From Rhodospirillaceae bacterium (GTDB taxonomy: Bacteria > Pseudomonadota > Alphaproteobacteria > UBA828): a stretch of DNA of 64,000 bases. The DNA lies in assembly GCA_018666805.1 (NCBI GenBank), contig JABIXB010000205.1, forward strand, positions 12,889 through 76,888, written 5' to 3'. Below the pieces are notes generated by a model. That model was not told where the DNA came from. It did not search any database and saw nothing but the letters and a program-made list of their open reading frames with translations. The first letter of the stretch is position 1. Each line of letters opens with the position of its first letter. Below, in pieces: positions 2,497 to 55,909 of the stretch. The position numbers were made by a program, and so were the translations under genes.

Positions 2497-4053
2497 CTAC
2501 CTTTCGATTGTCCGGCACACATGCCCATGCGCGCGCAGCGTGGCGCAAAGGGTGCGCGATTTTAACGGTGTATCGAGGGGACCAACAATCAGCTCAACAT
2601 ATTTACCCGTATCCTCGCCGTCCGCCGCAGCCGCTTCAATGGGTTGAAATTCGAACGGCAATTTGCGCAGCAGGCCGGCATGGGTCGTACTTATAATTTG
2701 CCATGCCTCCAGCGCCGCCGCCTCGCTCTCATAGGTCGCCAGGCTGATGAGGAAGATTTCCGGCTCCGGCGGCAGGGGGGGAAGAATATCCTCATCTGCA
2801 TCTGTTGTATCTGGCGCCAGTTCCGCATCAAATGCCGTTGCTTCCGCATCAAGTGCTGCATCGAGGCGTGCGACCTTATTTTCAGCGACTTGCTCAGCCT
2901 GCTCAACCGCCGGCGCCTCAACCGGCGGAGCGGCCTCAACTTCGACCGCTTCATTAGGGCCGGCAACCTTCGTTTCCGTAACCACCTCAGCTTGCTCAAC
3001 TATCGGCGCTTCAGCCGGCGCTGCCTCTTCATCGAGCAAATCCTCGACCAGAAGGATGGTTCGCTCCGGTTCGGGCTGAGCAGCAATTAACAAACCCTGT
3101 TCTTCACCGCCTTCGGACGATGCAGTTTCGCCGCCGGGAGATTGCAGCTGCACCGCCGGCAAATCCTCGGGCGGCGGCACGCGGGCAGGTGGGCGGGGTT
3201 TGGGCTGAGACGGCAGGGGTTTGAGACTGTCCTCCACATCAACGGCACCCATCGGAACATTGCCGGGCGGCTCATCCGACCCGGGAACATGGGCCGGTTC
3301 GGGCGGTGTCAGTGCGATCGAGGCGAGCGGAAAATTTTCGCCGCGCCGGGCGATCGGTTCGGGTCCATCGAATATCGTCGCTGGCGGCGGCGCCTCGGGC
3401 GCGTCATCCAGGGCAGCGAGATCGATCTCGATTGCCGGCTCTTCTTTTTTGCCGGCAACGAATTCCGCCCGGCGCTCGCCAAGCGGCGTGGCGGGAATGT
3501 TGAGGCTCGGATTGGCCAGCGCCACACTCTCCCGCCCGGTGGCAAAGGTCGCTTCCGCCGGAAAACTCTCATCCTCGGCCCAGCTTGCCGAAGCCTGGCT
3601 GTAGAGCGCTTCCGCCTCGGCAAAATCCCGCTCGACGCCGAGGCCGCGGTCATAAAGATAGGCGAGCGCGGCCTGCGCCGATTCATTGCCCTTGTCCGAA
3701 GCGCGCTGATACCATTTGGCGGCCTCGCCATAGTCAAGCGCAATGCCTTCGCCGCGCTCATAGAGGGACCCGATATGGAATTCCGCCAGAGCATCGCCTT
3801 GTTCAGCCGCGCGGCGGTACCACACAAGAGCCAAGGCCGGATCGCGGGCGATGCCGATGCCGCGTTCATAGAGCAGGCCAAGTGCGGTTTGCGCGGTTGA
3901 ATCGCCTTCCGCCGCCATGATAAATACCCGGTCCGCGCGCGAGCCGCGCTCGGCCTCTGGGCCGGTGGCGCCACAGGCGGCGGCAATGGTGAGAACACCA
4001 GCCAACAGCGCGCCGCGTGCAACGCGAAAGATCATCATATTTGGCTTCGGCAC
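2497..4053 (-). CDS. Secreted Sel1-repeat protein with a Pro/Glu/Ala-rich linker and a C-terminal SPOR (septal peptidoglycan-binding) domain
   Basis: N-terminal signal or lipoprotein-like segment (LTIAAACG). Three Sel1-like repeats follow (LGLLYERGIGIARD, WYRRAAEQGD, LYDRGLGVERD). A long low-complexity PEPA linker leads to a C-terminus with the SPOR-like pattern YVELIVGPL...C..L...G..C. Confidence 0.65.
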   Translation of the reverse strand: MPKPNMMIFRVARGALLAGVLTIAAACGATGPEAERGSRADRVFIMAAEGDSTAQTALGLLYERGIGIARDPALALVWYRRAAEQGDALAEFHIGSLYERGEGIALDYGEAAKWYQRASDKGNESAQAALAYLYDRGLGVERDFAEAEALYSQASASWAEDESFPAEATFATGRESVALANPSLNIPATPLGERRAEFVAGKKEEPAIEIDLAALDDAPEAPPPATIFDGPEPIARRGENFPLASIALTPPEPAHVPGSDEPPGNVPMGAVDVEDSLKPLPSQPKPRPPARVPPPEDLPAVQLQSPGGETASSEGGEEQGLLIAAQPEPERTILLVEDLLDEEAAPAEAPIVEQAEVVTETKVAGPNEAVEVEAAPPVEAPAVEQAEQVAENKVARLDAALDAEATAFDAELAPDTTDADEDILPPLPPEPEIFLISLATYESEAAALEAWQIISTTHAGLLRKLPFEFQPIEAAAADGEDTGKYVELIVGPLDTPLKSRTLCATLRAHGHVCRTIER

Positions 4054-9438: not shown

Positions 9439-10197
9439 ATGCAGTATTTTGATGACCTGCCCTACACCGTGGCTGTGGTCGGCGCCGGCAGCGGCATTGG
9501 CAAGACGACGGCGGAACTGATCGGGTCGATGGGCGTCTCTGTCGGTTGTCTCGACAAAAATGCGGAGGCGGCCGAAGATACCGCGCAGGCGATCGAGGCG
9601 GCGGGCGGCAAGGCCTGCTCCTACGCCATGGAAGTAACCGACCCGGCAAGCGCCAAAAGCGCGCTCGATCATGTCGAAGATATACTCGGCAACATCTCAG
9701 GCCTGGTGAATTGCGCCGGCATCACCGGCAAAACAGCGGTGCTCGGCGCGGATGTCGATCTCGATGATTTCGACCAGGTGCATGATATCAACGTCAAGGG
9801 TGCGCTGATCGTTTCCCAGGCAGTGCTGCCCAGCATGTTGGCACGTGGTTATGGCCGCGTGCTGCACGTCGCCTCGATCTCCGGCAAGGAAGGGAATTCC
9901 GGCATGCTGGCTTATTCGACCTCCAAGGCCGGGCTGATCGGCATGGTCAAGGTACTGGGCAAGGATTACGCCGAATCGGGCGTTACCATCAACGCCATCG
10001 CACCGGCCGTGGTGCGGACACCGATGGTCGATGTTCTGCCGAAAGAAACCGTCACCTATATGACCGATAAAATCCCGATGAAACGCTGCTGCGAGCTTAG
10101 CGAAGTGGCGCAGTTGATCGCCTGGACCATCTCACCGGCGTGCAGCTTCAACACCGGCTATGTGTTTGACATGACCGGCGGGCGCGCCACCTATTAG
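9439..10197 (+). CDS. SDR family NAD(P)-dependent oxidoreductase
   Basis: VVGAGSGIGK cofactor motif, NCAG, S..YSTSKAG (YxxxK active site), PG.V.T. Confidence 0.85.
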   Translation: MQYFDDLPYTVAVVGAGSGIGKTTAELIGSMGVSVGCLDKNAEAAEDTAQAIEAAGGKACSYAMEVTDPASAKSALDHVEDILGNISGLVNCAGITGKTAVLGADVDLDDFDQVHDINVKGALIVSQAVLPSMLARGYGRVLHVASISGKEGNSGMLAYSTSKAGLIGMVKVLGKDYAESGVTINAIAPAVVRTPMVDVLPKETVTYMTDKIPMKRCCELSEVAQLIAWTISPACSFNTGYVFDMTGGRATY

Positions 10198-10198
10198 T

Positions 10199-11842
10199 TT
10201 AATCGACGACGATGATTTCGCCGAGAAAGCTCTCTTGAATGCGAATCGTCGCGACACCGCTTTGGATCGACTGCGTCGGAACGACGGCGGTGGCGGCGGA
10301 ATAGCCATCGGCGGCGTAGCGCCGGGTGATGGCATGGGAGATGCTGTAGAGATCGCTTACCGAGACCTCACTGCCAATATAGTGCCGGTAAATCGGCAGT
10401 AATTCACGCGCCGAATAGATTGAGGAACCGTCGATGATGACGCCGGCCAACTCAAAGCGCATCTCGGCCGCATCCTCTTCAGGCAGAATATCGACAGCCA
10501 GATCGCCAGATTCTTCCTGACTATCGAGCGCCGCATCAATTCTCGCCCATTCCGATTGTTCTTCCTCCAATTCTTCTTCCAATGCCGGTTTGGTTGCGCT
10601 CGTTTCATCCGCGCCCTCCGCGCGTTCCGCAACCGCTTGCGGCTCGGGCTCCAACGCGGCAACCACCTGTTCCACCTCCGGCTCGACAACCTGCTCGACC
10701 ATAGCGACTTCGGCCTCAGGCGGTTGCTCGGGCTCCGGAGCAACGACAGTAATCTCAGCCTTTTCCGGCTCAGGTTCCGGTGTCTCGACCACGATCTCGA
10801 CCTCTTCCGGCTCGGGCTCCGGCGTTTCGACAACGACCTCGACCTCCTCCGGCTCAGGCTCCGGCGTTTCGACAACGACCTCGATCTCTTCCGGCTCAGA
10901 CTCCGGCGCCACTGCGGCGATCTCGATCTCTTCCGTTTCGGCGGCAACGATCTCCGGCGCCGCTTCGTCGGCAACAATATCCACGGTCTGTTCGGCGTAA
11001 TCGCCCCGAGTGACCTCTTCGGGGTCCATCTCAGGCTCGCTGCTCTCGACCGGCTCGACCACAGCGACGATCGTTTCTTCTGGTGCCTCCTCGGGCACCG
11101 TCTCTGCCACTGCCTCGACCACGGCAGCGTCTTCCGCCGCCGGTGTTTCGCCCGCCCCATCCTTGGTATCCAGGCGTGAAGCCAATTTCGGCATGACGGC
11201 GCCGAAATCGCGCCCCTGGGCGCTGAACAGCTCGGCCACATTGTTGAAGAGGACAGCGCTGGTCAACGGATGGACGCGCTCGATCTCGGCCAGGATACCG
11301 AGGGCGCGGCGATACAGCGGCTCGGCCTCGGCAAATCTCGCTTCGAGATAATAAAGTTGCGCCAAATCGTTCAAACTAACGGCCACCGCCATGTGATTGG
11401 GGCCGAATTCCATCTCCTTGATCTTAATCGTCCGGAGATAGAGCGTTTCCGCCTCATCATAGCGACCCTGCCAGCGATACAATTTAGCCAATTTTCCGAC
11501 CAATACGGCGGTGGTGCGGTGGCCCATGCCCAAGGATCGCTCGGCCGACTGCACGGCCTCGACCAACAGCGGCTCAGCCTCCCCGAGATGGCCCATCTCA
11601 ATATGCAGCTCGGCAACATTAGCGTAGAGAACGGCCGAAGTCGGGTGACCCTCGCCAAACTCGCTTTCATGCAATTCGATCAGTTTAAGCGCATGCGGCA
11701 GTGCCTCTTCAAAGCGGTCCTGCGCATAGTGCGTGGCATAGAGGTTGTAGGTATCGAGAAGCGCGTCCGATTGCGCCCAGCCCGTGGCCGGGGCCAGCGC
11801 GAACGCCGCAACCGCCGCTATCGCCCACCTTCTGGCCTTCAT
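10199..11842 (-). CDS. Periplasmic protein with TPR repeats, an acidic tandem-repeat region and a C-terminal POTRA_2-like domain, with no beta-barrel
   Basis: Signal peptide MKARRWAIAAVAAFALAPATGWA. About 200 aa of TPR (YANVAELHIEMG, LAKLYRWQGRYDEAE, LAQLYYLEARFAEAE). About 180 aa of PEPEPEEVEVVVET repeats. The C-terminus GVIIDGSSIYSARELLPIYRHYIGSEVSVSDLYSISHAITRRYAADGYSAATAVVPTQSIQSGVATIRIQESFLGEI matches the ShlB/FhaC-type POTRA pattern. The stop abuts the convergent SDR gene. Confidence 0.65.
   Translation of the reverse strand: MKARRWAIAAVAAFALAPATGWAQSDALLDTYNLYATHYAQDRFEEALPHALKLIELHESEFGEGHPTSAVLYANVAELHIEMGHLGEAEPLLVEAVQSAERSLGMGHRTTAVLVGKLAKLYRWQGRYDEAETLYLRTIKIKEMEFGPNHMAVAVSLNDLAQLYYLEARFAEAEPLYRRALGILAEIERVHPLTSAVLFNNVAELFSAQGRDFGAVMPKLASRLDTKDGAGETPAAEDAAVVEAVAETVPEEAPEETIVAVVEPVESSEPEMDPEEVTRGDYAEQTVDIVADEAAPEIVAAETEEIEIAAVAPESEPEEIEVVVETPEPEPEEVEVVVETPEPEPEEVEIVVETPEPEPEKAEITVVAPEPEQPPEAEVAMVEQVVEPEVEQVVAALEPEPQAVAERAEGADETSATKPALEEELEEEQSEWARIDAALDSQEESGDLAVDILPEEDAAEMRFELAGVIIDGSSIYSARELLPIYRHYIGSEVSVSDLYSISHAITRRYAADGYSAATAVVPTQSIQSGVATIRIQESFLGEIIVVD
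10760..10935. repeat. Tandem repeat inside the TPR gene, period about 45 bp, about 3.5 copies
   Basis: Near-identical units ctcttccggctcgggctccggcgtttcgacaacgacctcgac encode the repeats EEVEVVVETPEPEP. Confidence 0.7.
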
Positions 11843-11850
11843 GAACTGAA

Positions 11851-12111
11851 TACCAAGGGGTGGTGATAGTGACACATAGGGATCGCCCCTGCGGCCTGTC
11901 GGGTAGGAGGGAGGCCGCAGGCGATGCGGCGCATCGGCAAGGCCTTCCGACGCCCTCCAACAGGCCGCAGGGGCGACCGGTTCGGCGGCTTACCAAGGCT
12001 TTCGGACGGCGTCGCGCGTGCCTTGCGATGTGCCGCATCGCCACGCCCCACGCTCCTAGCCGAAAGCCTTGGTAAGCCGTCCCTATGCGCCACTATCACC
12101 ACCCCTTGGTA
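11851..12111. mobile_element. MITE-like non-autonomous element with 32-bp terminal inverted repeats and nested internal palindromes
   Basis: Left end TACCAAGGGGTGGTGATAGTGACACATAGGGA (11851-11882) and right end TCCCTATGCGCCACTATCACCACCCCTTGGTA (12080-12111) are reverse complements at 30 of 32 positions. Internal perfect 16-bp inverted pairs are CGCCCCTGCGGCCTGT/ACAGGCCGCAGGGGCG and TTACCAAGGCTTTCGG/CCGAAAGCCTTGGTAA. If the ends are read as CCAAGG..CCTTGG, the element is flanked by TA dinucleotides. No transposase ORF is present. Confidence 0.5.
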
Positions 12112-12158
12112 TTTAACTCCCGAATCATGCCCCATAAAAAACCCCAGAGCCGCCCGCG

Positions 12159-13454
12159 TCAACAATTAGGCGCATGCGTGTGGCACGCCAGGACATCGCC
12201 GACCAAATAAAGCGAACCGCAGACGAGGATGCGGCCCGGGCCGTCCTGTCGTGAAATCCACGCCAGCGCCGCCTTTACATCTTTAGCCTCATGATTTGGC
12301 AAACCGAGGCCCGCCGCCGCCGCCGAGATATCTTCTGGTGCCAAACTGGCAGTTTCACCCGGCACGGCGACCCCGGTCACGCTGGCCGCGAGGGGCGCAA
12401 GCGGGCGGAGGAAATCTTCCGGCGCCTTGCTGTTGATCATGCCGATGATCAAATGGAGCGGCTTATCCGTCCAATCCCGGGCCGCCGCCAGCGCCTCTCC
12501 AGCCGCCGCATTGTGGCCCCCATCGAGCCACACTTCCCAGCCTGCCGACATATCGGACAAGGATATTTGCTGCAACCGGCCGGGCCAACGGGCGCCGGCG
12601 AGACCCTCAGTAATCGCCGCGTGCGGCAACGCACCCGCCGCCAGCACCTCGACACAGGCAATGGCGATCCCGGCATTGCCGATCTGATGCGCGCCGGCGA
12701 GAGCGGGCAGGGGAAAGTGCGATTTTCCCGATGATGATTCGAAATTAAAGCCGTCACCGCCGGGGTGAACATCCCATTCAACGCCGTAGCGCAGGAGAGG
12801 TGTTCCGAGAGTGGCAGCGCGGTCCTCGATTGCGGCGAGCGCAGCTGGCATCTGGGCGCCGATCACCGCCGGTACCCCAGCCTTCAGAATACCCGCCTTC
12901 TCAGCCGCGATGCCGACCAGCGTATCGCCAAGATATTGCGTATGATCGATCGACACCGGCGTAATGGCCGAAAGCGCCGGGCGCGCCACAACATTGGTCG
13001 CATCGAGCCGCCCGCCGAGGCCAACCTCCAGCAAAAGAATATCGGCGGCGCTGCGTTCGAACGCGAGCAAGGCGGCAGCGGTGGTGATTTCAAAAAATGT
13101 GATCGGCGCACCTTCGTTAGCAGCTTCGCATTCCGCCAACAGAGCGGTGAGTTGCGCCTCGTCGATATCCCTGCCAGCAAGCCGGATGCGCTCATTAAAA
13201 TGCACCAGATGGGGCGAAACATAGCTATCCACGCGCTGGCCTCTGGCGCTGAGGATGGCGTCTAAATAGGCCAGGGTGCTGCCTTTGCCGTTAGTACCGG
13301 CAATATGAATGACAGGCGGCAGGCGGGTTTCGGGATTGCCCAAATTTTTCAGCAACCGTTCCATACGGCCGAGCGAAAGATCAATCAGCTTGGGATGCAA
13401 TTGCTGCAGCCGAGCGAGAATGCGGCCGCTCGCTTCCGCCGGTTTGCCCGTCAT
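12159..13454 (-). CDS. folC: Bifunctional folylpolyglutamate synthase / dihydrofolate synthase
   Basis: IHIAGTNGKGST P-loop and the Mur-ligase-family architecture. It sits in the conserved accD-folC position. The start is placed at MTGKPAE. Confidence 0.9.
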   Translation of the reverse strand: MTGKPAEASGRILARLQQLHPKLIDLSLGRMERLLKNLGNPETRLPPVIHIAGTNGKGSTLAYLDAILSARGQRVDSYVSPHLVHFNERIRLAGRDIDEAQLTALLAECEAANEGAPITFFEITTAAALLAFERSAADILLLEVGLGGRLDATNVVARPALSAITPVSIDHTQYLGDTLVGIAAEKAGILKAGVPAVIGAQMPAALAAIEDRAATLGTPLLRYGVEWDVHPGGDGFNFESSSGKSHFPLPALAGAHQIGNAGIAIACVEVLAAGALPHAAITEGLAGARWPGRLQQISLSDMSAGWEVWLDGGHNAAAGEALAAARDWTDKPLHLIIGMINSKAPEDFLRPLAPLAASVTGVAVPGETASLAPEDISAAAAGLGLPNHEAKDVKAALAWISRQDGPGRILVCGSLYLVGDVLACHTHAPNC

Positions 13455-13485
13455 GCCGGGATGCGCCGCCTCGCCCGGGCCTCTG

Positions 13486-14382
13486 TCAGGGTGCCGGCGT
13501 CTCGGCGCGCGCAAGCTCGACGACTTGAGCGGGCGCGGCGGTATTGCGCAACAGGGATATTGTCTTCGCCAAGGTGTCGCGCAAATCATGGCGCCGGACC
13601 ACCATGTCGATCATGCCGTGCTCGAGGAGATGCTCGGCGCGCTGAAAGCCTTCCGGCAGCTTTTCACGGATCGTATCCTCGATTACCCGCGCGCCGGCAA
13701 AGCCGATCACCGCGCCGGGTTCGGCAATGGCAATATCGCCCAACATGGCGAAGGATGCCGTCACGCCGCCGGTGGTCGGGTGGGTGAGCACAACGATATA
13801 GGGCAGATGCGCTTCTTTCAGTTCATCCACCGCGATGGTGGTGCGCGCCATTTGCATCAGCGACAATGTGCCTTCCTGCATTCGCGCCCCGCCCGACGCC
13901 GGGACGACGATAAACGAAGAATCCTGCAACACCGCGAGCCGCGCGCCATTCAGTAGCGCTTCGCCGACCGCCACCCCCATCGAGCCGCCGAGAAAGGAAA
14001 AATCGAACGCCGCGACGACGACCGGATTGCCACCGATCGTGCCATGGGCAACGATGACGGCATCCTGATGGGCGTTACTGCGCGCATCTTTCAGGCGGTC
14101 GGCATAGCGCTTGCGGTCACGAAAACGTAAGGGATCGTTTGTCACCTCGGGCAGCTCGATGGTTTGAAACTCGCCGTCATCGAACATGTAGGAGAGGCGC
14201 TTGTTCGCATCGAGGCGCAAATGGTGATCGCAGTGCGGGCAGACACGCTGATTGTTTTCAAGCTCGCGGTGAAAAATCATCTGCTCGCAATTGGGGCACT
14301 TTTCCCACAAATCATGCGGGATATCGTCCTTGCGAAAGAGGCCCCGCACCTTCGGGCGGGCGAAGCGATCGAGCCAACTCAT
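13486..14382 (-). CDS. accD: Acetyl-CoA carboxylase carboxyltransferase beta subunit
   Basis: N-terminal zinc ribbon CPNCEQ...CPHCDHH and the carboxyltransferase domain; 298 aa. Confidence 0.9.
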
Positions 14383-29462: not shown

Positions 29463-30728
29463 TCACGTGACGTAGACCACCGAATCCGTGGCAGCCTCAA
29501 TCCGCCCGGCGCGGACATCGGCAACAACGGCGCGCAAATCGCGCAAATAATTTTCCACTTCTTCCTGGTGGGACATATTAACCCATAGCATGATCGAATC
29601 AGGCTGCTCTGCGCGTGTCGCGGACCAACCCTTCGCGGCCATACCGGTTTCGACGGCGAAAATATCGAAATCGCGCGCCGTGAAATAGAAATGCAGGGCA
29701 TGCGGCCGGGCGATGATTTCCAGGCCGTCGATCTCCTCAACCCCGGCCATCAGACGGCGCTTGATATCGCGCTGGGCGGAAAAAATTCTGAGATAACCTT
29801 CCTCGCCGAGATAGTTCATCACCGCCCAGGCGGAGGCCAACGGCCCGCCCGAGCGCGAGCCGGTGATATTGGCGGTGCTGTACACGCCGGCCGGCCAATC
29901 GCCGAAAGAGGTGTGCTGATGCGCTTCCAGCGCTTTGTCGTGTAAGAGGACCAACGAGATGCCCTTGTTGGCGTAACCGAATTTGTGCAAATCGACGGAC
30001 ATCGACATGACGCCGGGAACGGCGAAATCAAATTCCGGCACCGGCTCGCCGAGGCGGCGCATGAAGGGCAGAATACAGCCGCCGATGCAGCCATCGACAT
30101 GCATCCAGAGGCCATGCGCCCGCGCGATCGCGGCGATATCCTCGATCGGGTCCGTTTCGCCGTAGGGATAAGGCGGGGCGGAACCCATGATCATGATCGT
30201 ATTGTCGCCGACCGCCGCCGCCATCGCCGCCACATCGGCACGCCAGCCCGGGCTCTTGGCCATGCGCACCACTTTGAGGCCGAGCATATGCCCGGCCTTG
30301 TCGAAGGCCGGGTGGGCGGTGTGCGGCACGATGATTTCCGGCGTCCCGGCGGTCGGGCGGTTTTCGCGCGCCCATTCGCGCGCGGTTTTAACGCTCATGA
30401 TGATGCTTTCCGTGCCGCCGCCCGAGACACTGCCGGCGGCGCCCTCCGGCGCGCTCAGCAGCGCCAGCATCATATCGACAACGTCATTTTCATATTGCCC
30501 GAGGCTGGGATAGGCGGTGCGCGAGAAAATGGCATTTTCGGCGAGATACATATTGTAGGCATTATTGGCGACGGCGAGCAGATCCTCGCCGGCAAAATAG
30601 GCCGGCTTCAGATTGCGCGCATCGCACCACGGCATATCGTCCCGGTGCGCCGCCTTCATTTCAGATTCGACATCCTCCCAGCTTTTGGAAAGCGGTGGAA
30701 AGCGGGAATTTCGCATCTCTTTCTCCAA
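29463..30728 (-). CDS. PLP-dependent group II decarboxylase-fold enzyme (sphingosine-1-phosphate lyase / glutamate decarboxylase / MfnA-like)
   Basis: SMSVDLHKFGYANKG PLP-lysine motif and a GGTESI motif; 421 aa. Substrate cannot be assigned from sequence. Confidence 0.7.
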   Translation of the reverse strand: MEKEMRNSRFPPLSKSWEDVESEMKAAHRDDMPWCDARNLKPAYFAGEDLLAVANNAYNMYLAENAIFSRTAYPSLGQYENDVVDMMLALLSAPEGAAGSVSGGGTESIIMSVKTAREWARENRPTAGTPEIIVPHTAHPAFDKAGHMLGLKVVRMAKSPGWRADVAAMAAAVGDNTIMIMGSAPPYPYGETDPIEDIAAIARAHGLWMHVDGCIGGCILPFMRRLGEPVPEFDFAVPGVMSMSVDLHKFGYANKGISLVLLHDKALEAHQHTSFGDWPAGVYSTANITGSRSGGPLASAWAVMNYLGEEGYLRIFSAQRDIKRRLMAGVEEIDGLEIIARPHALHFYFTARDFDIFAVETGMAAKGWSATRAEQPDSIMLWVNMSHQEEVENYLRDLRAVVADVRAGRIEAATDSVVYVT

Positions 30729-30805
30729 TCTTCGTCCAGCCTTTGCAGATCGCCCGGCAAATCATAAGCTGGAACGCAAGCTAGGCAAACCGGGAGAACA
30801 AAAAA

Positions 30806-32119
30806 ATGACAGGCGCCAATCGACGCTACGACCTCATTCCCTGGGCGGCGCAAAATGCGGTCCACCCCGTAACCCAGATCGAGCGCGGCGAAGGCGCCTA
30901 TATTTACGATTCCGCGGGCCGCAAATATCTCGACTTTTCGTCCCAGTTGGTGAATGTCAATCTCGGCCACGGTCATCCAAAGGTGGTTAAGGCGATACAG
31001 GAGCAAGCCGAGCGTCTCTGCTATATCGGCCCGCACTTCACCACCGAGGCGCGCGATAAACTCGGCGCAAAACTGGCCGAAATCGCGCCCGGCGATATGG
31101 CCACCGCGTTCTTTACCGACAGCGGCAGCGAGGCCAATGAGATCGCCATGACGATCGCCCGCCTGGTAACCGGGCGGCGCAAGATCATGACGCGCTACCG
31201 CTCCTATCACGGCACCACGAGCGGCGCCTTGTCGGCGAGCGGCGATCCAAGACGCATTGCCACCGGTTACGAGCAGCCCAATGTGGTGCGTATCTTCGAC
31301 CCCTATTGCCATCGCTGTAGCTTCAAGCTGAGCTATCCTGAATGCGGCATCCAATGTGCCCGGAGTGTCGAGGAAGTAATCCAGCGCGAAGGCCCGGATC
31401 AGATCGCCGCCCTCCTGATCGAGCCAATGACCGCGTCGGCCGCCGGTATCGATCCGCCGCCGGAATATTTTCCCATGCTGCGCGAAATATGCGACCGCTA
31501 CGGCATTCTGATGATCGCCGATGAAGTAATCACGGGCTTCGGCCGCACGGGGAAATGGTTTGCCGTCAATCATTGGGACGTCGTGCCCGACATGATCACC
31601 AGCGCCAAGGGCCTGACCTCGGGCTATGTGCCGATGGGGGTGGTCATGATGCGCGATCATATCGCGCGCCATTTCGACGATAACTGGATTCCCGTCGGCT
31701 CGACGCAAACCGCCAACCCGATCGCCTGCGCCGCCGCCGTAGCAACGCTCGATGCCTATGTCGAGGATGGCCTGATCGAGAATGCCGCCGCCATGGGCGT
31801 GGTGCTGCGGGGCAGCCTGGACGAGCTGAAGCGCAATCACCCCTCGATCAGCGATGTGCGCAGCCTTGGCCTCCTGGCCTGCGTCGAGCTGGTGGAGGAC
31901 CGTGAGAGCGGTGAGCCACTCTCGGCCGCGTTCGGCCATGGCGACAGCATCGAATGGATCAAGCGCCGCGTGCTCGAACTTGGCCTCGAGGTGCGGGTCA
32001 GCGATCATTTTATTCTGATCGGTCCGCCGCTTTGCATCACGGCTGAGGAGATCGCCTGGGCGATGACGGCGTTCGATGAAATCCTCGGAGAGGTCGAAGG
32101 CCGGCTCGAAGCCGCCTGA
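30806..32119 (+). CDS. Class III (omega) aminotransferase, PLP-dependent
   Basis: DSGSEANE, ADEVITGFGRTG and TSAKGLTSGY (PLP Lys) motifs; 437 aa. Confidence 0.85.
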   Translation: MTGANRRYDLIPWAAQNAVHPVTQIERGEGAYIYDSAGRKYLDFSSQLVNVNLGHGHPKVVKAIQEQAERLCYIGPHFTTEARDKLGAKLAEIAPGDMATAFFTDSGSEANEIAMTIARLVTGRRKIMTRYRSYHGTTSGALSASGDPRRIATGYEQPNVVRIFDPYCHRCSFKLSYPECGIQCARSVEEVIQREGPDQIAALLIEPMTASAAGIDPPPEYFPMLREICDRYGILMIADEVITGFGRTGKWFAVNHWDVVPDMITSAKGLTSGYVPMGVVMMRDHIARHFDDNWIPVGSTQTANPIACAAAVATLDAYVEDGLIENAAAMGVVLRGSLDELKRNHPSISDVRSLGLLACVELVEDRESGEPLSAAFGHGDSIEWIKRRVLELGLEVRVSDHFILIGPPLCITAEEIAWAMTAFDEILGEVEGRLEAA

Positions 32120-36242: not shown

Positions 36243-37631
36243 ATGAACATGGGAGACATTATGGTTTGGCGGGACGTACCCTTGGGACGATGGCTGCGCA
36301 CGGTAGGAATTGCCGCAGCGCCGCTTGCCCTCGCCCTGATTATCCTTGCCGCGCTCGGTCTGATTCCGTTCGGTGCTGCCGCACTCACCTGGCTCGGTTT
36401 GACGATTATCAGCGCCGCCGCGATCTATTGGCTGCTCGGCGATTTGCTGCGCACCAAACGCGATATCGAGCTCATGGCGCGCGGCGACGATATTACACCG
36501 GCCGGCGGGCGCTCGCGCATCGGGCGCGAACTGGCGCAGGCCGTGCAGCGCCTCGAGCGCGAATCACGCGAACGCACCGGCCGCCTGGTGAGCGATCATG
36601 ACGGCCTAAAGCGCGCCCTGGATGCGCTACCCGGCCCGGTGCTGTTGTTGACGGCGGGACAAACGGTGGTCCGCGCCAACCGCGCCGCGAAGACCCTGCT
36701 TGGCGGCGAGCCCGAGGGCCGCGACCTGGCTGCGGTGCTGCGCAATCCCGATGTTATCGCAGCGCTCGAGACGGCCGCGCAAACCGATAGCGGCCAGGAT
36801 GTGGCCTTCACCCTGCAATCACCCATGGCGCGGTACTTCTCGGCCCACATCGAACCCTTGCGCCAACCCGCAGCCGACGGCACGGCAATCGTGCTTGCCC
36901 TTGTCGACGTGACGGCAGCGCGCTTGAGCGACCAGATGCGGGCAGATTTCATCGCCAACGCCAGCCATGAAATTCGCACTCCGCTTGCCACCCTGAGCGG
37001 ATTTATCGAAACCCTGCGCGGGCCAGCCAAGGACGACAGGCAAGCGAGCGAGCGCTTTCTCGCCATCATGGCCCAACACGCCGAACGGATGACGCGCCTG
37101 GTCGGGGATTTGCTCTCCCTCTCGCGTATCGAAATGAACGAGCACACGATTCCGGCGGATCAGGTCAACCTCGCCGCCCTGCTCGCCACTGTGACGGATA
37201 ATCTCGAATGGCGCGCCAAGGAGCGGTCCGTCGCTCTGACCAGCGATATCGAGGCAGGGCTTCCTTCGCTGCCAGGAGATTCCGGTGAGCTGACGCAATT
37301 GTTTCAAAACCTCATCGACAACGCGATCAAATATGGCCGGGAGGATGGCGCCGTACGCATCCGTGCCTGGCGCGATAAAGCCGGTGAACGCGATATCCTG
37401 GTGTCAATCGCGGATGAGGGCGAGGGTATCGCGCGCGAGCATCTGCCGCGCCTGACCGAACGGTTTTATCGCATCGATACGGCGCGTTCGCGCGAGCTTG
37501 GCGGCACCGGCCTCGGCCTCGCCATCGTAAAACACATCGCCAGCCGCCACCGGGCGGAACTCTCGATTAAATCCGAGCCGGGAAAGGGCAGCATTTTCAC
37601 CCTCCGCTTCGCCCCCATTGCGGCTGAATAA
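36243..37631 (+). CDS. phoR: Phosphate regulon sensor histidine kinase PhoR
   Basis: Two N-terminal TM segments, a PAS-like region, H-box ASHEIRTPL, then N, G1 and G2 boxes. It is adjacent to pstCAB-phoU-phoB. Start could be 36243 or 36261. Confidence 0.85.
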
Positions 37632-37695
37632 TCGGGTTCAGCCAAGCCTTAATGCCGGCAATCCGAATAAAAATCAAACGGAGTTACAGCGTAAA

Positions 37696-38997
37696 ATGAC
37701 CAGCCTGTTGAAAATAAGAAACAAAGCTTCCGCCCGGATCAACCGGGCGAGTCTGTTGCTCGGCGCGGCGGTATTGAGCGCCCCGATCCTGCTCGCCCAA
37801 CCGGCAGCCGCGGATGATATTTCGGACCTGAAAGCGGAAAACACGGCTCTCAAAGACCAGATCGAAAGTCTGGCGCGGGATCTGCAACAGCTGCGCGATG
37901 CGGTCCACCAAAATGGCCAGGCGGTCGCCGAAGTAAAGGCCGATAGTCAGAACGCCGGGCCGGTTGTCACATCCGGCGAGGAAAATACCAAACTCGCTAT
38001 TTCCGGCCATGTGAACCGCATGCTGTTTTACGCCGATGACGGCGATCAGGCGCGCTGGTTCCATGCCGACAACGACTCCTCGGCGTCCCGCGTACGCTTC
38101 ATCGGCTTGACCAAAATGGGCGACAATTGGAGCGCCGGTACGACCATGGAGTTACAATTCGAGTCAAACTCGACTGACGACCTCACCATTGACCAAAATA
38201 CGGCGACCATCGCCAGCAACAGTTTTACCGAGCGCAAGCTCGAACTGTGGTTCAGCAACAACGATTTGGGCAAAATTTATTTGGGCCAGAGCTCCGCCGC
38301 CTCAGATGGCACGATGGAGGAAGACCTCTCCGGCACGGGCGTGATTTCTAGTTCGGGCTATTCCGGTCTCGGTGGTTCCCTGGCGTTTCGCGTTTCGGGC
38401 AGCCAGGGCGTTTCGACGGGGGTAACGATAGGCGACCTCTTCAGTGCCCAGAACGGCCTCAACCGCGATGACCGGATTCGTTACGACAGCCCGACCTTTG
38501 CCGGCACCAAGCTCTCGACCTCCTGGGTCGATGGCGACGAGTGGGATCTGGCGGCACGCTATGGCCGCGAGTTCGACGGCACCGAGGTCGCCCTCGCCGC
38601 CGGCTATTGGGACGCCTCGCCGACCGCGCAAAAGACCGGCTATGGCATGTCCGCCTCGGCCAAGGCATCGTTCGGCACCAGCCTGAGCGCGAGCTATTCG
38701 AGCGAGGACATCGAGGCCACGGCGCGCGACGACGAGGAATTCTGGTACGTCAAGCTCGGCCACGATTTCGAAATGACGAGTCTCGGCGGCAGCGCCATCA
38801 GCATCGATTATTCCCAAACCGAGGATCAGGGCGCGACCGGCCGCGAGGGCACGTTCTACAGCCTCGCGGCGGCGCAATCGATCGATAGGCTCAGCGCCGA
38901 ACTTTATGCTATCATCGGCGTCTATGATGCCGATCTGCCCGATGTTCAGACCGAAGACGTCACCATCGGCGGGTTCGGCGCACTGGTGAGATTTTAA
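37696..38997 (+). CDS. Outer-membrane porin with an N-terminal periplasmic coiled coil (possibly phosphate-regulated, OprO/P- or DcaP-like)
   Basis: Signal peptide, then coiled coil DISDLKAENTALKDQIESLARDLQQLRDAV. Alternating beta-strand pattern rich in G/S/T/D/Y, C-terminal ...GALVRF. Located between phoR and pstC. Confidence 0.5.
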   Translation: MTSLLKIRNKASARINRASLLLGAAVLSAPILLAQPAAADDISDLKAENTALKDQIESLARDLQQLRDAVHQNGQAVAEVKADSQNAGPVVTSGEENTKLAISGHVNRMLFYADDGDQARWFHADNDSSASRVRFIGLTKMGDNWSAGTTMELQFESNSTDDLTIDQNTATIASNSFTERKLELWFSNNDLGKIYLGQSSAASDGTMEEDLSGTGVISSSGYSGLGGSLAFRVSGSQGVSTGVTIGDLFSAQNGLNRDDRIRYDSPTFAGTKLSTSWVDGDEWDLAARYGREFDGTEVALAAGYWDASPTAQKTGYGMSASAKASFGTSLSASYSSEDIEATARDDEEFWYVKLGHDFEMTSLGGSAISIDYSQTEDQGATGREGTFYSLAAAQSIDRLSAELYAIIGVYDADLPDVQTEDVTIGGFGALVRF

Positions 38998-44651: not shown

Positions 44652-45914
44652 ATGGCAACAGCAGATTCGCGACTGGGCCGGACAATGAGCGATAGCCGGC
44701 TAGACGCAGGCCCGAATAGCAGCGAACCCAGTGGACGGCAAAAAGCCAAGGCGCCATCGCCGTGGTCCGTTCGCGGCGTTTCGCGCGAAGCGCGCGCCAA
44801 GGCTGCCAAGGCGGCGTCCCGGCGGCGCGAGACTCTCGGCGAATGGGTGACCAACGCACTCACCCAAATCGCCAATGAAGAACTCGGCACCGGGCCGCGT
44901 CGCGCCACCTCAGAAAGCGCCCAGGCCGGCCTCCCTGCCGGGCCAGCGCAGGACGAATCACCTCTCGGTAAGGCGCTGCTGGCTCTGGCGGAGCGATTTG
45001 AAAAATCTGAAAAACGCAATGATGCGATCAGCGCCCTGGCGCAGCGGGTCGATGTCGCCGAAAGCAGCAACCGCGAAGTCGGTGCCATGGCTGAGCAGAT
45101 CGGCATTGTCGAGCAGCGCTCACGCGCCCTGACGATGCTGGTCGAACGGCTCGAGACCGCGGACCGGCGGGAAAAGACCCTGCTTTCCCTGATGCACAGC
45201 GTCGCCGAACGGGCCGAACGGGGCGAGGAGCGCATTACTGCCGTAACCCGGGGCCTGGCGGAAATGGCAGGCCAGTTGGAGGCTGCGCTCAATCGCAATA
45301 GCGCCCGCACGGCGCAGGATATCAACCAATCGATCATGCCGCTCGAAAGCGCGGTGAACAATCTCAGCAGCCGCATATCGGCGCAATCGAAAGCGCCTCA
45401 GCCCACCCCGGCGGCGCCGAGCGCATCCGCGCAATATTACGGCACGCCGGCCGGAAACATCTCACCGCCGCCTGAACCAGAAGCAGCCGAAGCAGGGCCG
45501 GAAACAACCGCCAGCGCCGAATCGCAGGATGACATGGTGGACGGCGGAAAAAGCAGCAAACCGCTGAAGTTCGATTTTAAAGCCTTAAACAAACGCGCCA
45601 TCGAAAACAGCCAGCGCCTGGCCGGGGATTCGGACTCGGCACCGGCGGAGGAAAAAAGCTCCGACGGCGGCTGGTTCGGCAAGGCTGATTCAGCATCAGA
45701 GAACGACGCGGAAGATGGAAAGGCGCCGGCAAGCGATGATTGGGCCGCCGAGGCTTTGGCCGACAATACGATCGATCACGCGCCGCAAGACGATCATCAG
45801 GAACCCAAATTGGAAAATGAGGGTCGGGCGCAAAAACAACAGCCGGCTGCCAGCGAAGAAGATGAAATGTTGATGGCAATCAAAAATGCAATCAAGCTTG
45901 ACAGCTCCAACTAA
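44652..45914 (+). CDS. Coiled-coil protein with a PodJ-N-terminus-like motif and an acidic low-complexity C-terminus
   Basis: N-terminal SPWSVRGVSREARAKAAKAASRRRETLGEWVTNAL resembles the conserved start of alphaproteobacterial polarity factor PodJ (PWSVKGI...R.G.TLGEWLN; recalled from memory, not verified). A coiled-coil central region follows. There is no TM or peptidoglycan-binding domain. Confidence 0.45.
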   Translation: MATADSRLGRTMSDSRLDAGPNSSEPSGRQKAKAPSPWSVRGVSREARAKAAKAASRRRETLGEWVTNALTQIANEELGTGPRRATSESAQAGLPAGPAQDESPLGKALLALAERFEKSEKRNDAISALAQRVDVAESSNREVGAMAEQIGIVEQRSRALTMLVERLETADRREKTLLSLMHSVAERAERGEERITAVTRGLAEMAGQLEAALNRNSARTAQDINQSIMPLESAVNNLSSRISAQSKAPQPTPAAPSASAQYYGTPAGNISPPPEPEAAEAGPETTASAESQDDMVDGGKSSKPLKFDFKALNKRAIENSQRLAGDSDSAPAEEKSSDGGWFGKADSASENDAEDGKAPASDDWAAEALADNTIDHAPQDDHQEPKLENEGRAQKQQPAASEEDEMLMAIKNAIKLDSSN

Positions 45915-52325: not shown

Positions 52326-53558
52326 ATGAAACTGCTCCTAACCCTGTTGCTGATGGCAGTGCTTATAGCGCTGGCACCCTATGGCAGCGCCTCCGCCGGG
52401 TTAAGCGAAGGGCGTGCTGCCTATGCGCGCGGCGACTACAGCACGGCGATAAGCGAATTTACAGCGCTGGCCGAAGCCGGAAACGCCTACGCGCAACGCA
52501 TGCTCGGTGCCATGTACCGCCAAGGCCAGGGCGTCGCCAAGAATGCGGAACACGCCCTCTATTGGACGCAAAAGGCGGTCAAGCAGGGCGATGGCGGGGC
52601 ACAATTCAATCTCGCCAACATGTACGAGACCGGTGATTTGGTAGCGAAGAATTTTCCTCTCGCGGCCAAATTGTATCAGCTCGCGGCGCGCGCCGATATT
52701 CCTCTGGCGCAATATCGCCTCGGCGTATTTTTCCTTGAGGGCCTCGGCGGCACGCGCGACCGGGTGCGCGCCTTCGTATGGTTTTCACGTGCCGCCGTCA
52801 ATGAGCGTGCCGGCGGACTGGCGGCCCATGCCGCCAAAGCGCGTGACAAGATCGGCCAGCGCCTGAGTGAAACGGAGAAGGCGCGCGGCGCCCAGCTCCT
52901 GCAGCGGATGTTGGCGCAGTCCGCAGGCGTATCGCGCAAGCCAGCCAAGCAATCGACCGGCACCGGATTTATCGTCAGCGCCGATGGCTATATCCTGACC
53001 AATAACCATGTCGTCGCCGGCTGCAAGGAAGTGCATATCAAGCCGCTCGTCGTGCCGGTTGTTGCCACCGACGCCAAGCGCGATCTCGCGCTCTTAAAGG
53101 TGGGCGCTAATTTCAAGCGCTTCGCGACCTTCAGAGACGGCGCCATCCGCAAAGGTGAAAGCGTTGTCGTAGCGGGCTTCCCGCTGCACGGCGTGCTTGC
53201 CTCCGACCTTAAAATCACTACCGGCACGGTGAGCGGATTAGCCGGGCCGGGCAACAACGCGACGCTTCTGCAACTTTCCGCACCGATCCAGAAAGGCAAT
53301 AGCGGCGGCCCGTTACTCGACCTTTCGGGCCATGTGATCGGCGTGGTGGTGAGCAAATTGGACGCGCTGAAAATGGCCCGCGCGACCGGCGATATCCCGC
53401 AAAATGTGAATTTCGCCATCAAGGGGGATGTCGCGCACGCATTCTTGGCGGAGCATGATGTCGCGGTCGTGACGGCACAATCGACAGCAGATCTGCCGCC
53501 CGCCGATGTCGCCGAGCGCGCCCAGCTCTACACCGCATTGATCGAATGTTGGAAGTGA
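52326..53558 (+). CDS. Secreted Sel1-repeat protein fused to a trypsin-like (S1C/DegP-like) serine protease domain; no PDZ domain
   Basis: Signal peptide. Four Sel1-like repeats (AQRMLGAMYRQGQGV, AQFNLANMYETGD, AQYRLGVFFLEGLG). The protease domain has GTGFIVSADGYILTNNHV (His), D..DLALLKV (Asp) and GNSGGPL (Ser). Confidence 0.75.
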   Translation: MKLLLTLLLMAVLIALAPYGSASAGLSEGRAAYARGDYSTAISEFTALAEAGNAYAQRMLGAMYRQGQGVAKNAEHALYWTQKAVKQGDGGAQFNLANMYETGDLVAKNFPLAAKLYQLAARADIPLAQYRLGVFFLEGLGGTRDRVRAFVWFSRAAVNERAGGLAAHAAKARDKIGQRLSETEKARGAQLLQRMLAQSAGVSRKPAKQSTGTGFIVSADGYILTNNHVVAGCKEVHIKPLVVPVVATDAKRDLALLKVGANFKRFATFRDGAIRKGESVVVAGFPLHGVLASDLKITTGTVSGLAGPGNNATLLQLSAPIQKGNSGGPLLDLSGHVIGVVVSKLDALKMARATGDIPQNVNFAIKGDVAHAFLAEHDVAVVTAQSTADLPPADVAERAQLYTALIECWK

Positions 53559-53754: not shown

Positions 53755-54578
53755 GTGAGCGCGGCGAAATTCAATACATCCGCCATGGTATAGAGGCCGG
53801 GCGGCTTGCCTTGCGCCCAGGCCGCCGCGCGCAACGCGCCGCGGGCATAGGTCTGGCGGCTGGATGATTTGTGGGTCAGTTCCAAACGCTCGCCATCGGC
53901 GGCAAAAATCACGCTGTGATCGCCGACCACGTCACCGCCCCTGAGCGCAGCAAAGCCGATGGCGCCGCGCGCCCGTGCACCGGTAACGCCATCGCGCCCG
54001 CGCTCGGCGACATCATCCAACTGAACGCCCCGGCCCTTGGCAACCGCGCGGCCCAATCCGAGCGCGGTGCCGGAAGGTGAATCGACCTTGTGACGGTGAT
54101 GCATCTCGACGATTTCGACATCGTAGTCATCATCTAAAAGCGCCGCCGCCTGCTCGGCCAAATGCATCAAAAGATTGACACAGAGGCTCATATTCGGCGC
54201 CTGGACAATTGCCGTTTTTTCGCCGGCCCGCGCCAATGCGCCTTGCTGTTCGGCGGCAATACCGGTGGTGCCGATAATCAGCGCCGTGCCATGGCGGGCG
54301 GCGCCCTCAGCATGATCGGTGGTAGCGATGGGAAGGGTAAAATCGAGCACCACGTCGCTGGCGGCAAAGAGCGCGTCGCTGTCATCGCTAACGGCAACGG
54401 AGAGGGCCGCCCCGCCGGCAACTTCGCCGGCATCGCGCCCGAGCATCGCATGGCCAGAGATTTCGCTGGCCGCAACCAGACAAAAGCCGGGTGTCTCGGA
54501 AATTTGGCGAATCAGTGTCACGCCCATTCTGCCGGTGGCGCCCGTCACACCAATTTTTATGTCGTTTTGTTCCACCAT
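53751..54578 (-). CDS. dapB: 4-hydroxy-tetrahydrodipicolinate reductase
   Basis: KIGVTGATGRMG NAD(P) motif and EIVEMHHRHKVDSPSGTA catalytic motif. Start placed at MVEQNDIK. Confidence 0.9.
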   Translation of the reverse strand: MVEQNDIKIGVTGATGRMGVTLIRQISETPGFCLVAASEISGHAMLGRDAGEVAGGAALSVAVSDDSDALFAASDVVLDFTLPIATTDHAEGAARHGTALIIGTTGIAAEQQGALARAGEKTAIVQAPNMSLCVNLLMHLAEQAAALLDDDYDVEIVEMHHRHKVDSPSGTALGLGRAVAKGRGVQLDDVAERGRDGVTGARARGAIGFAALRGGDVVGDHSVIFAADGERLELTHKSSSRQTYARGALRAAAWAQGKPPGLYTMADVLNFAALT

Positions 54579-54677
54579 GTCGCCCCCGCTTGTTGCAGGG
54601 GGACAAAAAAACACAAAGCGCGGCGGACACCAAGCGCTATTGCATGTTCAACGCCAATGCAAAATTTGGTTGCCGGT

Positions 54678-55811
54678 TTAATCCTTGAGGTCTTCCCAGA
54701 TATCCTTGACCTTGGAAAAGAATCCGTCCGACTGCGGGCTGGTGGATTTGGTGCCGAGCGAATCGAATTGCTTGAGCAGTTCTTTTTGCTTCTTGTTGAG
54801 ATTGACCGGCGTTTCGACCGAAACCTCAATATACATATCGCCCTTCGAGCCACCTCTGAGCGCCGGCATGCCTTTGCCGCGCAAGCGGAACTGATGGCCG
54901 CTCTGGGTGCCGTGCGGGATGGTCACGCGCGCCCGCCCGCCGCCCAGCGTCGGCACATCGATGGAGCCACCAAGTGTGGCCGAGAACATCGGAATGGGAA
55001 CCTGGCAATAGAGGTTCATGGCATCGCGCTGAAACAGCGGATGCGGTTTGATGGAAATGAAAATATAGAGATCGCCCGCTGGCGCACCGCGCGCCCCGGC
55101 TTCGCCCTCACCGGCAAGGCGAATGCGCGTGCCGTCCTCAACCCCGGCCGGAATATTGACCGACAGCGTCTTTTCCTTTTGTACCCGACCGGCACCTCGG
55201 CAGCTTTTACACGGATCAGCGATCACGGTGCCGGAGCCCTGGCAGGTCGGGCAGGTGCGCTCGATGGTAAAAAATCCCTGCTGCGCCCGCACTTTGCCGA
55301 CGCCGCCACAGGCACTGCATATGGTCGGCTTGGTGCCTTCCTTGGCGCCGCTGCCGGAGCAATCGTCGCAGCTTACCGACGTCGCAGCCTGTATTTTGGT
55401 CTGCTTGCCGGCAAAGGCGTCTTCGAGATTGACTTCCATATTGTAGCGCAGATCGGCACCCCGCGCCGGACCACGCCGCCCGCCGCGCCGCTGGCCGCCC
55501 ATGAAATCGCCGAACAGGTCGTCAAATACATCGGCAAAACTGGAGCGGAAATCGAAATCGCCGGGACCGGCGCCACCGCCGCCGCCCTCGAATGCGGCAT
55601 GGCCATACTGATTATAGGCACTGCGTTTTTGTTCGTCGGAGAGCACGCCATACGCTTCCGACAGCTCCTTGAACATGGCTTCGGCTTCGTCGTCATCCGG
55701 ATTGCGATCCGGGTGATATTTCATCGCCAGCTTACGGTACGACTTCTTCAGTTCCGCCGCATCCGCGTCGCGGGTGACACCCAGTGTCTCGTAATAATCT
55801 CGTTTGGCCAT
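54678..55811 (-). CDS. dnaJ: Molecular chaperone DnaJ
   Basis: J-domain with HPD (YHPDRNP), a G/F-rich region, and four CxxCxGxG zinc-finger repeats. Start placed at MAKRDYYE. Confidence 0.95.
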
Positions 55812-55909
55812 TCTGCCCTCAACGCCCGACACGACCGTGCACACCGCGCCCGAAATTTGGCGGCGTTGCCGGAATGATCTGCATGGATAGCGTCACCGCT
55901 GGAAGCGGT

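Follow-up and report, generated by a model that had tools for sequence, protein, structure and literature searches.

POTRA domains are understood as the periplasmic arms of the Omp85 and TpsB outer-membrane barrels. In the TpsB proteins, the transporters of type Vb secretion, two tandem POTRA domains are coupled to a 16-stranded β-barrel, with a plug helix (H1) and a linker of ~30 residues placed before the first of them (POTRA1), and it is probably by β-augmentation that the POTRA domains of both TpsB and BamA bind their ligands. POTRA domains have been described as binding partners, probably by β-augmentation, and those of TpsB proteins as recognizing TPS domains in an extended conformation (PMC5422565). 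Outside the Omp85 and TpsB barrels, FtsQ is the only protein for which a POTRA domain has been described (Heinz and Lithgow 2014). Here we report the analysis of a gene found in a 64-kb stretch of DNA from a Rhodospirillaceae bacterium (contig JABIXB010000205.1, assembly GCA_018666805.1; hereafter, the window), whose product joins a signal peptide, a TPR solenoid, a long acidic linker and a single C-terminal POTRA domain of the TpsB type. We consider it very probable that this is a genuine barrel-less TPR-POTRA protein maintained by selection. Its domains are known ones combined in an undescribed soluble architecture: full-text literature searches recovered no description of a barrel-less protein with a ShlB-type POTRA domain, NCBIfam holds no curated family for the 547-aa protein, and members of the family carry at NCBI only the name 'tetratricopeptide repeat protein'.

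A first-pass annotation, made from the letters of the window, had claimed a signal peptide, ~200 aa of TPR repeats, acidic repeats and a C-terminal POTRA_2 domain of the ShlB/FhaC type on a protein without a barrel, and all of this was borne out. Pfam searches matched the N-terminal 215 residues to TPR_12 (9.4e-28) and TPR_10 (1.3e-24) in four stretches, and residues 463-537 to POTRA_2 (PF08479) with 53.3 bits over profile positions 1-75 of 76. The score rises to 57 bits with the C-terminus alone, against a curated cut-off of 24 bits, which all three of the orthologues rescanned also pass. At E<=10, Pfam returned neither a ShlB (PF03865) nor an Omp85 (PF01103) barrel, and likewise no second POTRA, no SPOR domain (PF05036) and no POTRA_1 domain of the FtsQ type (PF08478); the chain runs on for 10 residues beyond the POTRA domain and then stops. 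The full-length AlphaFold2 (AF2) model displays nine confident TPR helices over residues 26-188 (block predicted local distance difference test, or pLDDT, 80-94), further helices at low confidence up to residue 226, and a pLDDT of about 30 over residues 190-460, which we read as disorder. Whereas in this first full-length model, built on a shallow alignment, the POTRA region was of low confidence (pLDDT 45-65), AF2 modelling of the C-terminal 118 residues with a 71-sequence alignment gave a pLDDT >90 over ~460-539 with the order β-α-α-β-β, the last ten residues, SFLGEIIVVD, having a lower pLDDT of 63.

In Foldseek searches against the PDB, the best match of this model was 2mhj, the N-terminal POTRA domain of Pseudomonas TpsB4 (root-mean-square deviation, rmsd, 1.1 Å over 76 columns, template-modelling score 0.75, 28% identity), followed by CdiB and FhaC (including 6wim and 4ql0) and then by the POTRA domains of Omp85/BamA. 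A sequence-profile search of the PDB likewise placed TpsB4 on top, with the POTRA of the Anabaena Omp85 protein Alr2269 second and CdiB a weak third. The domain retains the near-invariant residues of the TpsB POTRA1, namely F34, L36, G43, Y47, Y56, T77, Y80, G84, Y85, A90, P93, Q95, G100 and E108 in the numbering of the C-terminal module, and shares ~30-41% identity with the nearest TpsB POTRA domains. Thus, in sequence, fold and core residues it resembles the POTRA1 of FhaC, TpsB4/LepB, CdiB and ShlB. Unlike these transporters, however, the window protein lacks the 16-strand barrel and a second POTRA, its gene has no TpsA gene beside it, and its POTRA domain is C-terminal, behind ~440 residues, rather than just after the signal peptide. 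Since it fails these defining features (barrel, second POTRA, adjacent TpsA), it should not be classed as a TpsB protein. The C-terminal tail, SFLGEIIVVD, aligns with the TpsB segment 'GFIxxVxIxG' that lies just beyond POTRA1, as judged from the alignment consensus and the Pfam boundaries, and might represent the first strand of the missing POTRA2. At the other side of the domain, MAFFT placed the family-invariant motif EWARIDAALD, which in the full-length model falls in a helix at 421-440 within the low-confidence part, opposite the TpsB motif PGRIEkRFE. Homology with the H1 region was not supported beyond this positional resemblance: in short-profile hidden Markov model (HMM) comparisons, run in both directions, the scores did not exceed those of shuffled or reversed controls, and the best matches missed the motif itself.

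The N-terminal module shows the tandem ~42-residue repeats, folded as helix hairpins in a solenoid, by which TPR proteins are recognized. It matches the TPR domains of kinesin light chain 1 in the PDB at 1e-29 and bacterial TPR_12 proteins at 37-42% identity. Translation is taken to start at the ATG at 11842, a choice backed by an N-terminus conserved in orthologues (MKARRWA...). Reading the sequence without a predictor, we delineate in the signal peptide an n-region, MKARR, an h-region, WAIAAVAAFALAPA, and a cleavage site at TGWA / QSD. As the twin arginine is not conserved (KK in L003, RQ in L006), Tat export is unlikely and Sec export is favored, and the complete absence of Cys rules out a lipoprotein; the mature form is predicted to be exported and soluble. 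It is strongly acidic, with a net charge of about -87 and an isoelectric point of 4.1; the linker (E 29%, V 16%, A 14.5%, P 12.6%) has a net charge of -63, and the TPR module is also acidic with a net charge of -11.

A full-length search of 5.8 billion proteins recovered about a dozen relatives combining TPR and POTRA_2 domains, none of which has a barrel. The complete orthologues, 527-766 aa in length, all stop at the same position directly after the POTRA domain, with the common end ...G-x-(I/V)(I/L)x(V/A)(D/N/E)* (complete are the window protein, P0001-P0003, P0007, P0009/P0010 and the products of loci L003 and L006, to which L005 is added if its internal stop is read through). The shared end point holds across synonymous divergences (dS) of 0.35 to >1.7. 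By contrast to this fixed end, the linker varies from ~200 to ~435 aa among orthologues and its repeat unit is almost wholly different between them; despite this divergence it is always rich in Glu/Val/Ala/Pro(/Ile). Ratios of nonsynonymous to synonymous change (dN/dS), computed by the Nei-Gojobori method, are 0.06-0.13 for the TPR module, 0.075-0.24 for the POTRA domain and 0.28-0.38 for the linker, the lowest values for close pairs being 0.056 for the TPR module versus L004 and 0.075 for the POTRA domain versus L007. Both folded modules are thus under purifying selection. The gene has a GC content of 60.4%, equal to that of the window. Taken with the common end of the orthologues, the conserved synteny described below and the low dN/dS, this points to an architecture that is old within the clade, vertically inherited and kept by selection, rather than a local truncation.

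HMMER was run exhaustively against 1.84 billion cluster representatives with a profile built from the C-terminal module, and only nine family representatives emerged at E<1e-30, all from uncultured marine Alphaproteobacteria; five are members or fragments already known, and the remaining four are short fragments, among which P0105 proved to belong to the family. After a gap in the scores come thousands of matches, and most of those listed are 555-590 aa long with a POTRA domain near residues 60-170. At a threshold of E<=1e-10 the profile of this module collects 608 proteins; four full-length matches resembling TpsB were rescanned, and all of them have POTRA_2 followed by a ShlB barrel. The gene itself was found in 5 of 185,579 species genomes, all of them metagenome-assembled genomes (MAGs) of uncultured marine alphaproteobacteria (JAPYQV01, CAYSDJ01, CAJXFT01, CAZPMO01 and PTKB01). 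In MAGs the contigs often break inside the acidic tandem repeat (L004 and L007 belong to one MAG, CAYSDJ01, and L008 and L009 to another, PTKB01), and hence the family is mostly seen as fragments annotated as partial or hypothetical; it is probably under-counted in MAG-based catalogues. Two candidates for a second kind of barrel-less POTRA_2 protein were rejected, P0112 as it looks repeat-collapsed, with identical POTRA units, and P0161 as it lies on a 1.8-kb contig and looks chimeric. A separate case is P0097, a 198-aa open reading frame (ORF) on a 1-kb ENA contig, in which the C-terminal module of the family (85% identity to the window) follows an unrelated N-terminus with PF21157; it is probably a chimeric or mis-called ORF on a very short contig.

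Table 1. Features at the TPR-POTRA locus. Coordinates are positions in the 64-kb window, i.e. the full stretch, and - denotes the minus strand.
Feature	Coordinates	Strand	Evidence and remarks
Complete coding sequence, 547 aa + stop	10199..11842	-	TAA at 10199-10201; N- and C-terminus both conserved in orthologues
Predicted Sec-type signal peptide, aa 1-23 (MKARRWAIAAVAAFALAPATGWA, then QSD)	11774..11842	-	Read from sequence; cleavage motif kept in P0001-P0003, L003 and L006
TPR solenoid, aa 24-215, kinesin-light-chain type (TPR_12/TPR_10)	11198..11773	-	Pfam; AF2; PDB match; dN/dS
Hyper-acidic disordered linker, aa 216-429	10556..11197	-	Composition; AF2; length variation; dN/dS
Tandem repeat, 42 bp x4.4, encoding VVETPEPEPEEVE-type units within the linker	10752..10935	-	Repeat scan
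Family-invariant EWARIDAALD, aa 431-440, predicted helix	10523..10552	-	Invariant alignment columns; 29 residues ahead of the POTRA domain
Single ShlB/TpsB-type POTRA domain, aa 463-537, β-α-α-β-β	10232..10456	-	Pfam; AF2; Foldseek; dN/dS
C-terminal 10-residue tail, SFLGEIIVVD, aa 538-547	10202..10231	-	Lies past the Pfam POTRA_2 boundary
Palindromic MITE-like insertion, ~273 bp	11843..12115	.	Terminal inverted repeats 11838-11882 and 12080-12124; two internal hairpins
Ancestral Shine-Dalgarno sequence, GGGAG	12117..12121	-	Now ~275 nt from the ATG; in L004 GGGAGTcgggttt directly before the ATG
folC	12159..13589	-	Pfam Mur_ligase; upstream, preceded by trpF-trpB-trpA-accD
Convergent SDR gene, intact	9439..10197	+	adh_short 5e-49; same neighbor at all syntenic loci

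Immediately upstream of the start codon lies an element resembling a miniature inverted-repeat transposable element (MITE), which the first-pass annotation had taken as a sign of a rearranged locus. The element is real, with 45-nt terminal inverted repeats (84% complementary) and two internal hairpins of 20 nt, and as RNA it folds at -206 kcal/mol (z = -15.5). The rearrangement did not stand. L004 is the closest relative without the element (over aa 1-274 the proteins are 91% identical). Its spacer reads GGGAGTcgggtttATG, and the ~273 bp of the window sit exactly between that GGGAGT and the ATG; the element is therefore a single insertion, placed cleanly so as to part the Shine-Dalgarno sequence from the start codon. 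The insertion is also present in the metagenome contig L014, which is 99.6% identical to the window; the coding sequences differ at seven sites, all synonymous and all within ~43 bp (11582-11624, codons 73-87). This clustering resembles a short tract of recombination or gene conversion more than it does scattered mutation. No second copy of the element occurs in the window or in the related loci, a metagenome scan with the core of the terminal inverted repeat found the same locus (L013 and L014), its five other 19-mer matches being chance ones inside coding sequence, and the element matches no Rfam family. A multi-copy MITE was accordingly rejected: terminal inverted repeats on a short non-coding element are present, multiple dispersed copies were not found in the window, the related loci or the metagenome scan, and 'MITE-like' covers the shape of the element only.

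The gene order trpF-trpB-trpA-accD-folC -> gene <- SDR <- α/β-hydrolase <- PEPCK is shared by the window and the loci L001, L003 and L006. The gap between folC and the gene is ~50-60 bp in L001, L003 and L006, and the gene is probably co-transcribed with trpFBA-accD-folC; the folC-gene spacer has no promoter-like site and no convincing terminator, and candidate sites of both kinds around the gene did not rise above chance level. At the other end, the stop codon is separated by 1 bp, as the first-pass annotation had noted, from that of a convergent short-chain dehydrogenase/reductase (SDR) gene, which occupies the DNA where a barrel would have to be encoded. The secreted TpsA partner that was to be sought did not turn up: scanning the 20 largest window ORFs and the syntenic locus L001 gave no cognate TpsA with a TPS domain. 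Elsewhere in the window, 2497-4053 (-), which has a syntenic counterpart in L001, codes for a Sel1-repeat protein of 518 aa, and 52326-53558 (+) for a 410-aa fusion of Sel1 repeats with a trypsin-like peptidase (Trypsin_2). Four further long ORFs have no Pfam match at 1e-5, namely 37618-38997 (+), which lies between a histidine kinase gene and pstC/pstA-like permease genes, 30656-32008 (-), 44652-45914 (+), and 54162-55877 (+); at least the last of these overlaps an opposite-strand ORF and may be spurious.

Beyond TpsB, the architecture can be set beside several other systems. Like FtsQ/DivIB, which shows that a POTRA domain can serve by itself as a periplasmic protein-protein interaction module, the protein bears a POTRA domain without a barrel, but FtsQ has a POTRA_1 domain (PF08478) behind an N-terminal transmembrane anchor and is encoded among the division and cell-wall genes, whereas here we find a TpsB-type POTRA domain, a cleavable signal peptide and a trp-accD-folC context. 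A functional analogy exists with the BAM complex, in which the POTRA domains of BamA and the TPR lipoprotein BamD handle extended polypeptides in the periplasm. There, however, the modules reside on separate proteins fixed to the outer membrane by the BamA barrel and the lipid anchor of BamD, rather than on one soluble chain, and the window TPR module differs from BamD in being of the kinesin-light-chain type (TPR_12/TPR_10) and in lacking a lipobox Cys. The kinesin-light-chain-type TPR proteins of bacteria (BKLC, TPR_12-CHAT, TPR_12-kinase) match the N-terminal module, but they are cytoplasmic or carry CHAT, kinase or NB-ARC effectors, in contrast to the exported, acidic, POTRA-bearing window protein. 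With the Glu-Pro/Lys-Pro region of TonB and with SPOR proteins like DedD it shares a long Pro/Glu-rich spacer that runs from an N-terminal module to a small binding domain at the C-terminus; sequence similarity to these is absent, no membrane anchor remains after cleavage, and the spacer is far more acidic (by the charge given above) and far longer than spanning the periplasm needs. The nearest TPR relatives outside the family are the TPR_12-CHAT proteins P0048 and P0036 (L019 6737-11576; L020 6963-11450), whose genes are each flanked by one for an OmpA-like β-barrel and one for an OmpA peptidoglycan-binding domain, which suggests an envelope-associated context for that TPR-CHAT subgroup. A 'Rosetta-stone' origin of the family from a TPR_12-CHAT/TpsB gene pair was rejected, the three TPR-CHAT relatives checked (L018-L020) being without a TpsB neighbor.

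The first-pass annotation had left open whether the protein is an undescribed soluble TPR-POTRA adaptor or a remnant of a TpsB protein, i.e. the 5' part of a transporter gene which lost its barrel in a MITE-linked rearrangement. The latter could draw on the TpsB type of the POTRA domain, on the nearest non-family relatives being full TpsB proteins, on the mobile-looking element adjoining the gene, and on the protein ending where the second POTRA of a TpsB protein would start. We regard it as effectively refuted, as all complete orthologues share this end across the whole range of dS, the locus is collinear with an intact SDR gene directly downstream in every relative, the dN/dS of the POTRA domain is far under 1, and ~440 residues of TPR and linker precede a domain that is N-terminal in TpsB proteins; the element, moreover, lies at the 5' end of the gene and is a clean insertion absent from relatives. 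Equally, the notion that the POTRA match is a false positive, with some other small α/β domain at the C-terminus, could appeal to the poor confidence of the first full-length model on its shallow alignment. It is refuted by the 53-57 bits against a cut-off of 24 with the full profile covered, by the 608 proteins at E<=1e-10 with ShlB barrels in the four TpsB-like matches rescanned, by the confident β-α-α-β-β fold obtained from the deeper alignment, and by the 1.1 Å rmsd to the TpsB4 POTRA1, with CdiB, FhaC and the Omp85/BamA POTRA domains next in line. What stands of the soluble adaptor is the architecture and its absence from the literature searched; the adaptor role is something that we infer.

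Several observations weigh against a functional protein with such a role. In the window genome the insertion has moved the Shine-Dalgarno sequence away from the ATG and would, as RNA, enclose the start region in the -206 kcal/mol hairpin, and may thus lower expression of the gene; an in-frame GTG at 11875 within the element, preceded at 10 nt by AGGGG, could take over as the start codon and would then extend the signal peptide by MSLSPPLGIQF. The family has a very narrow distribution, being limited to a small group of uncultured marine Alphaproteobacteria. No TpsA, TpsB or other Omp85-family gene is found in the 64-kb window or at <=10 kb from the gene in relatives. Known ligands of kinesin-light-chain TPR domains are acidic W-motifs, and as the TPR module is itself acidic, such a ligand is unlikely here. 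Premature in-frame stops interrupt the POTRA domain in two of ~7 species-level loci (TCG->TAG at about 12162-12164 in L005 and TAY->TAA at about 560 in L009), three codons apart at the start of helix α2; these argue against strict essentiality of the domain, which may be dispensable or decaying in some lineages. Recoding at these stops was rejected, as the codons (TAG and TAA) and the positions differ and each is one base from a sense codon; to judge from the sequences, they would be independent nonsense changes or consensus errors. The two stops, the insertion in the window and L014, the rarity of the family (nine among 1.84 billion cluster representatives; five among 185,579 species genomes) and the hypervariable linker all favor the alternative that this is a lineage-specific gene of marginal function, a chance fusion that was tolerated, partly conserved and is now being lost. 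Nevertheless, we consider this unlikely, since both folded modules show strong purifying selection (the lowest ratios being those versus L004 and L007), the seven substitutions that arose once the insertion was in place are without exception synonymous, the TARA data contain an intact allele of the L005 gene (P0101), and in L005 and L009 the frame past the stop is intact and conserved to the normal terminus, so that the stops are either recent events or consensus errors. A further alternative is an envelope or division tether in the manner of DedD/FtsN (SPOR) or FtsQ (POTRA), in which a long linker lets the C-terminal domain dock on a septal or peptidoglycan-associated partner. The gene occupies the slot held by dedD in the E. 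coli order accD-folC-dedD, the layouts are similar (an export signal at the N-terminus, then an extended linker of low complexity and a ~80-residue C-terminal α/β domain), and FtsQ is the only known POTRA protein outside Omp85/TpsB (Heinz and Lithgow 2014). However, there is no sequence similarity to E. coli DedD (BLASTP E = 2), and neither a SPOR nor a POTRA_1 match at E<=10, and cleavage of the signal peptide would leave the protein without a membrane anchor; the POTRA domain is unambiguously of the TpsB type, and a positional analogy across distant classes may be coincidence. We hold such a tether to be improbable.

We therefore return to the genuine TPR-POTRA protein with an adaptor role. 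On this compound explanation, whose chances we judge to be evenly balanced, the gene would be functional and inherited vertically, and its product a soluble envelope protein that is exported by Sec and peculiar to a small clade of uncultured marine alphaproteobacteria. This protein would have arisen by fusion of a kinesin-light-chain-type TPR solenoid of four to five repeats with one TpsB-type POTRA1 and a short extra strand, joined by a polyanionic disordered spacer of 200-435 residues that evolves by tandem-repeat turnover, and a barrel would never have been present in the protein of this lineage. The most likely mechanism, which we offer tentatively and with considerable doubt, is that of a bivalent periplasmic adaptor or tether. 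Kinesin-light-chain-type TPR domains are solenoids that bind short peptides in their groove. The POTRA end would bind an extended polypeptide segment of a partner by β-augmentation, and this partner could be an unfolded exported protein or a member of the Omp85/TpsB family; the TPR groove would hold a second peptide ligand, and the acidic entropic spacer would keep the two binding ends apart and soluble. It is also conceivable, if quite unlikely, that we are dealing with a split Omp85/TpsB system, in which the POTRA domain became detached from its barrel and acts in trans as a soluble periplasmic receptor. As such it would pick up an extended substrate, or a client bound by the TPR module, and engage an Omp85-family barrel encoded elsewhere that is POTRA-less ('noNterm') or has a single POTRA, and in docking the orphan C-terminal strand may complete the sheet of the partner by strand donation. 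Were this true, it would be the first trans-acting POTRA domain in outer-membrane protein transport.

Given the narrow distribution, in a handful of uncultured marine Alphaproteobacteria, and no pointer to a specific pathway, the immediate impact of the finding is modest. To the specialist in outer-membrane biogenesis it is nonetheless unusual, for a POTRA domain of the TpsB type on a soluble exported protein, kept under selection, shows that this domain can be put to new use as an independent binding module. The family amounts to a natural minimal POTRA1 construct fused to a peptide-binding TPR domain, and if a partner barrel or substrate exists, it would offer a natural experiment on the separation of substrate recognition from membrane translocation in Omp85-type machines.

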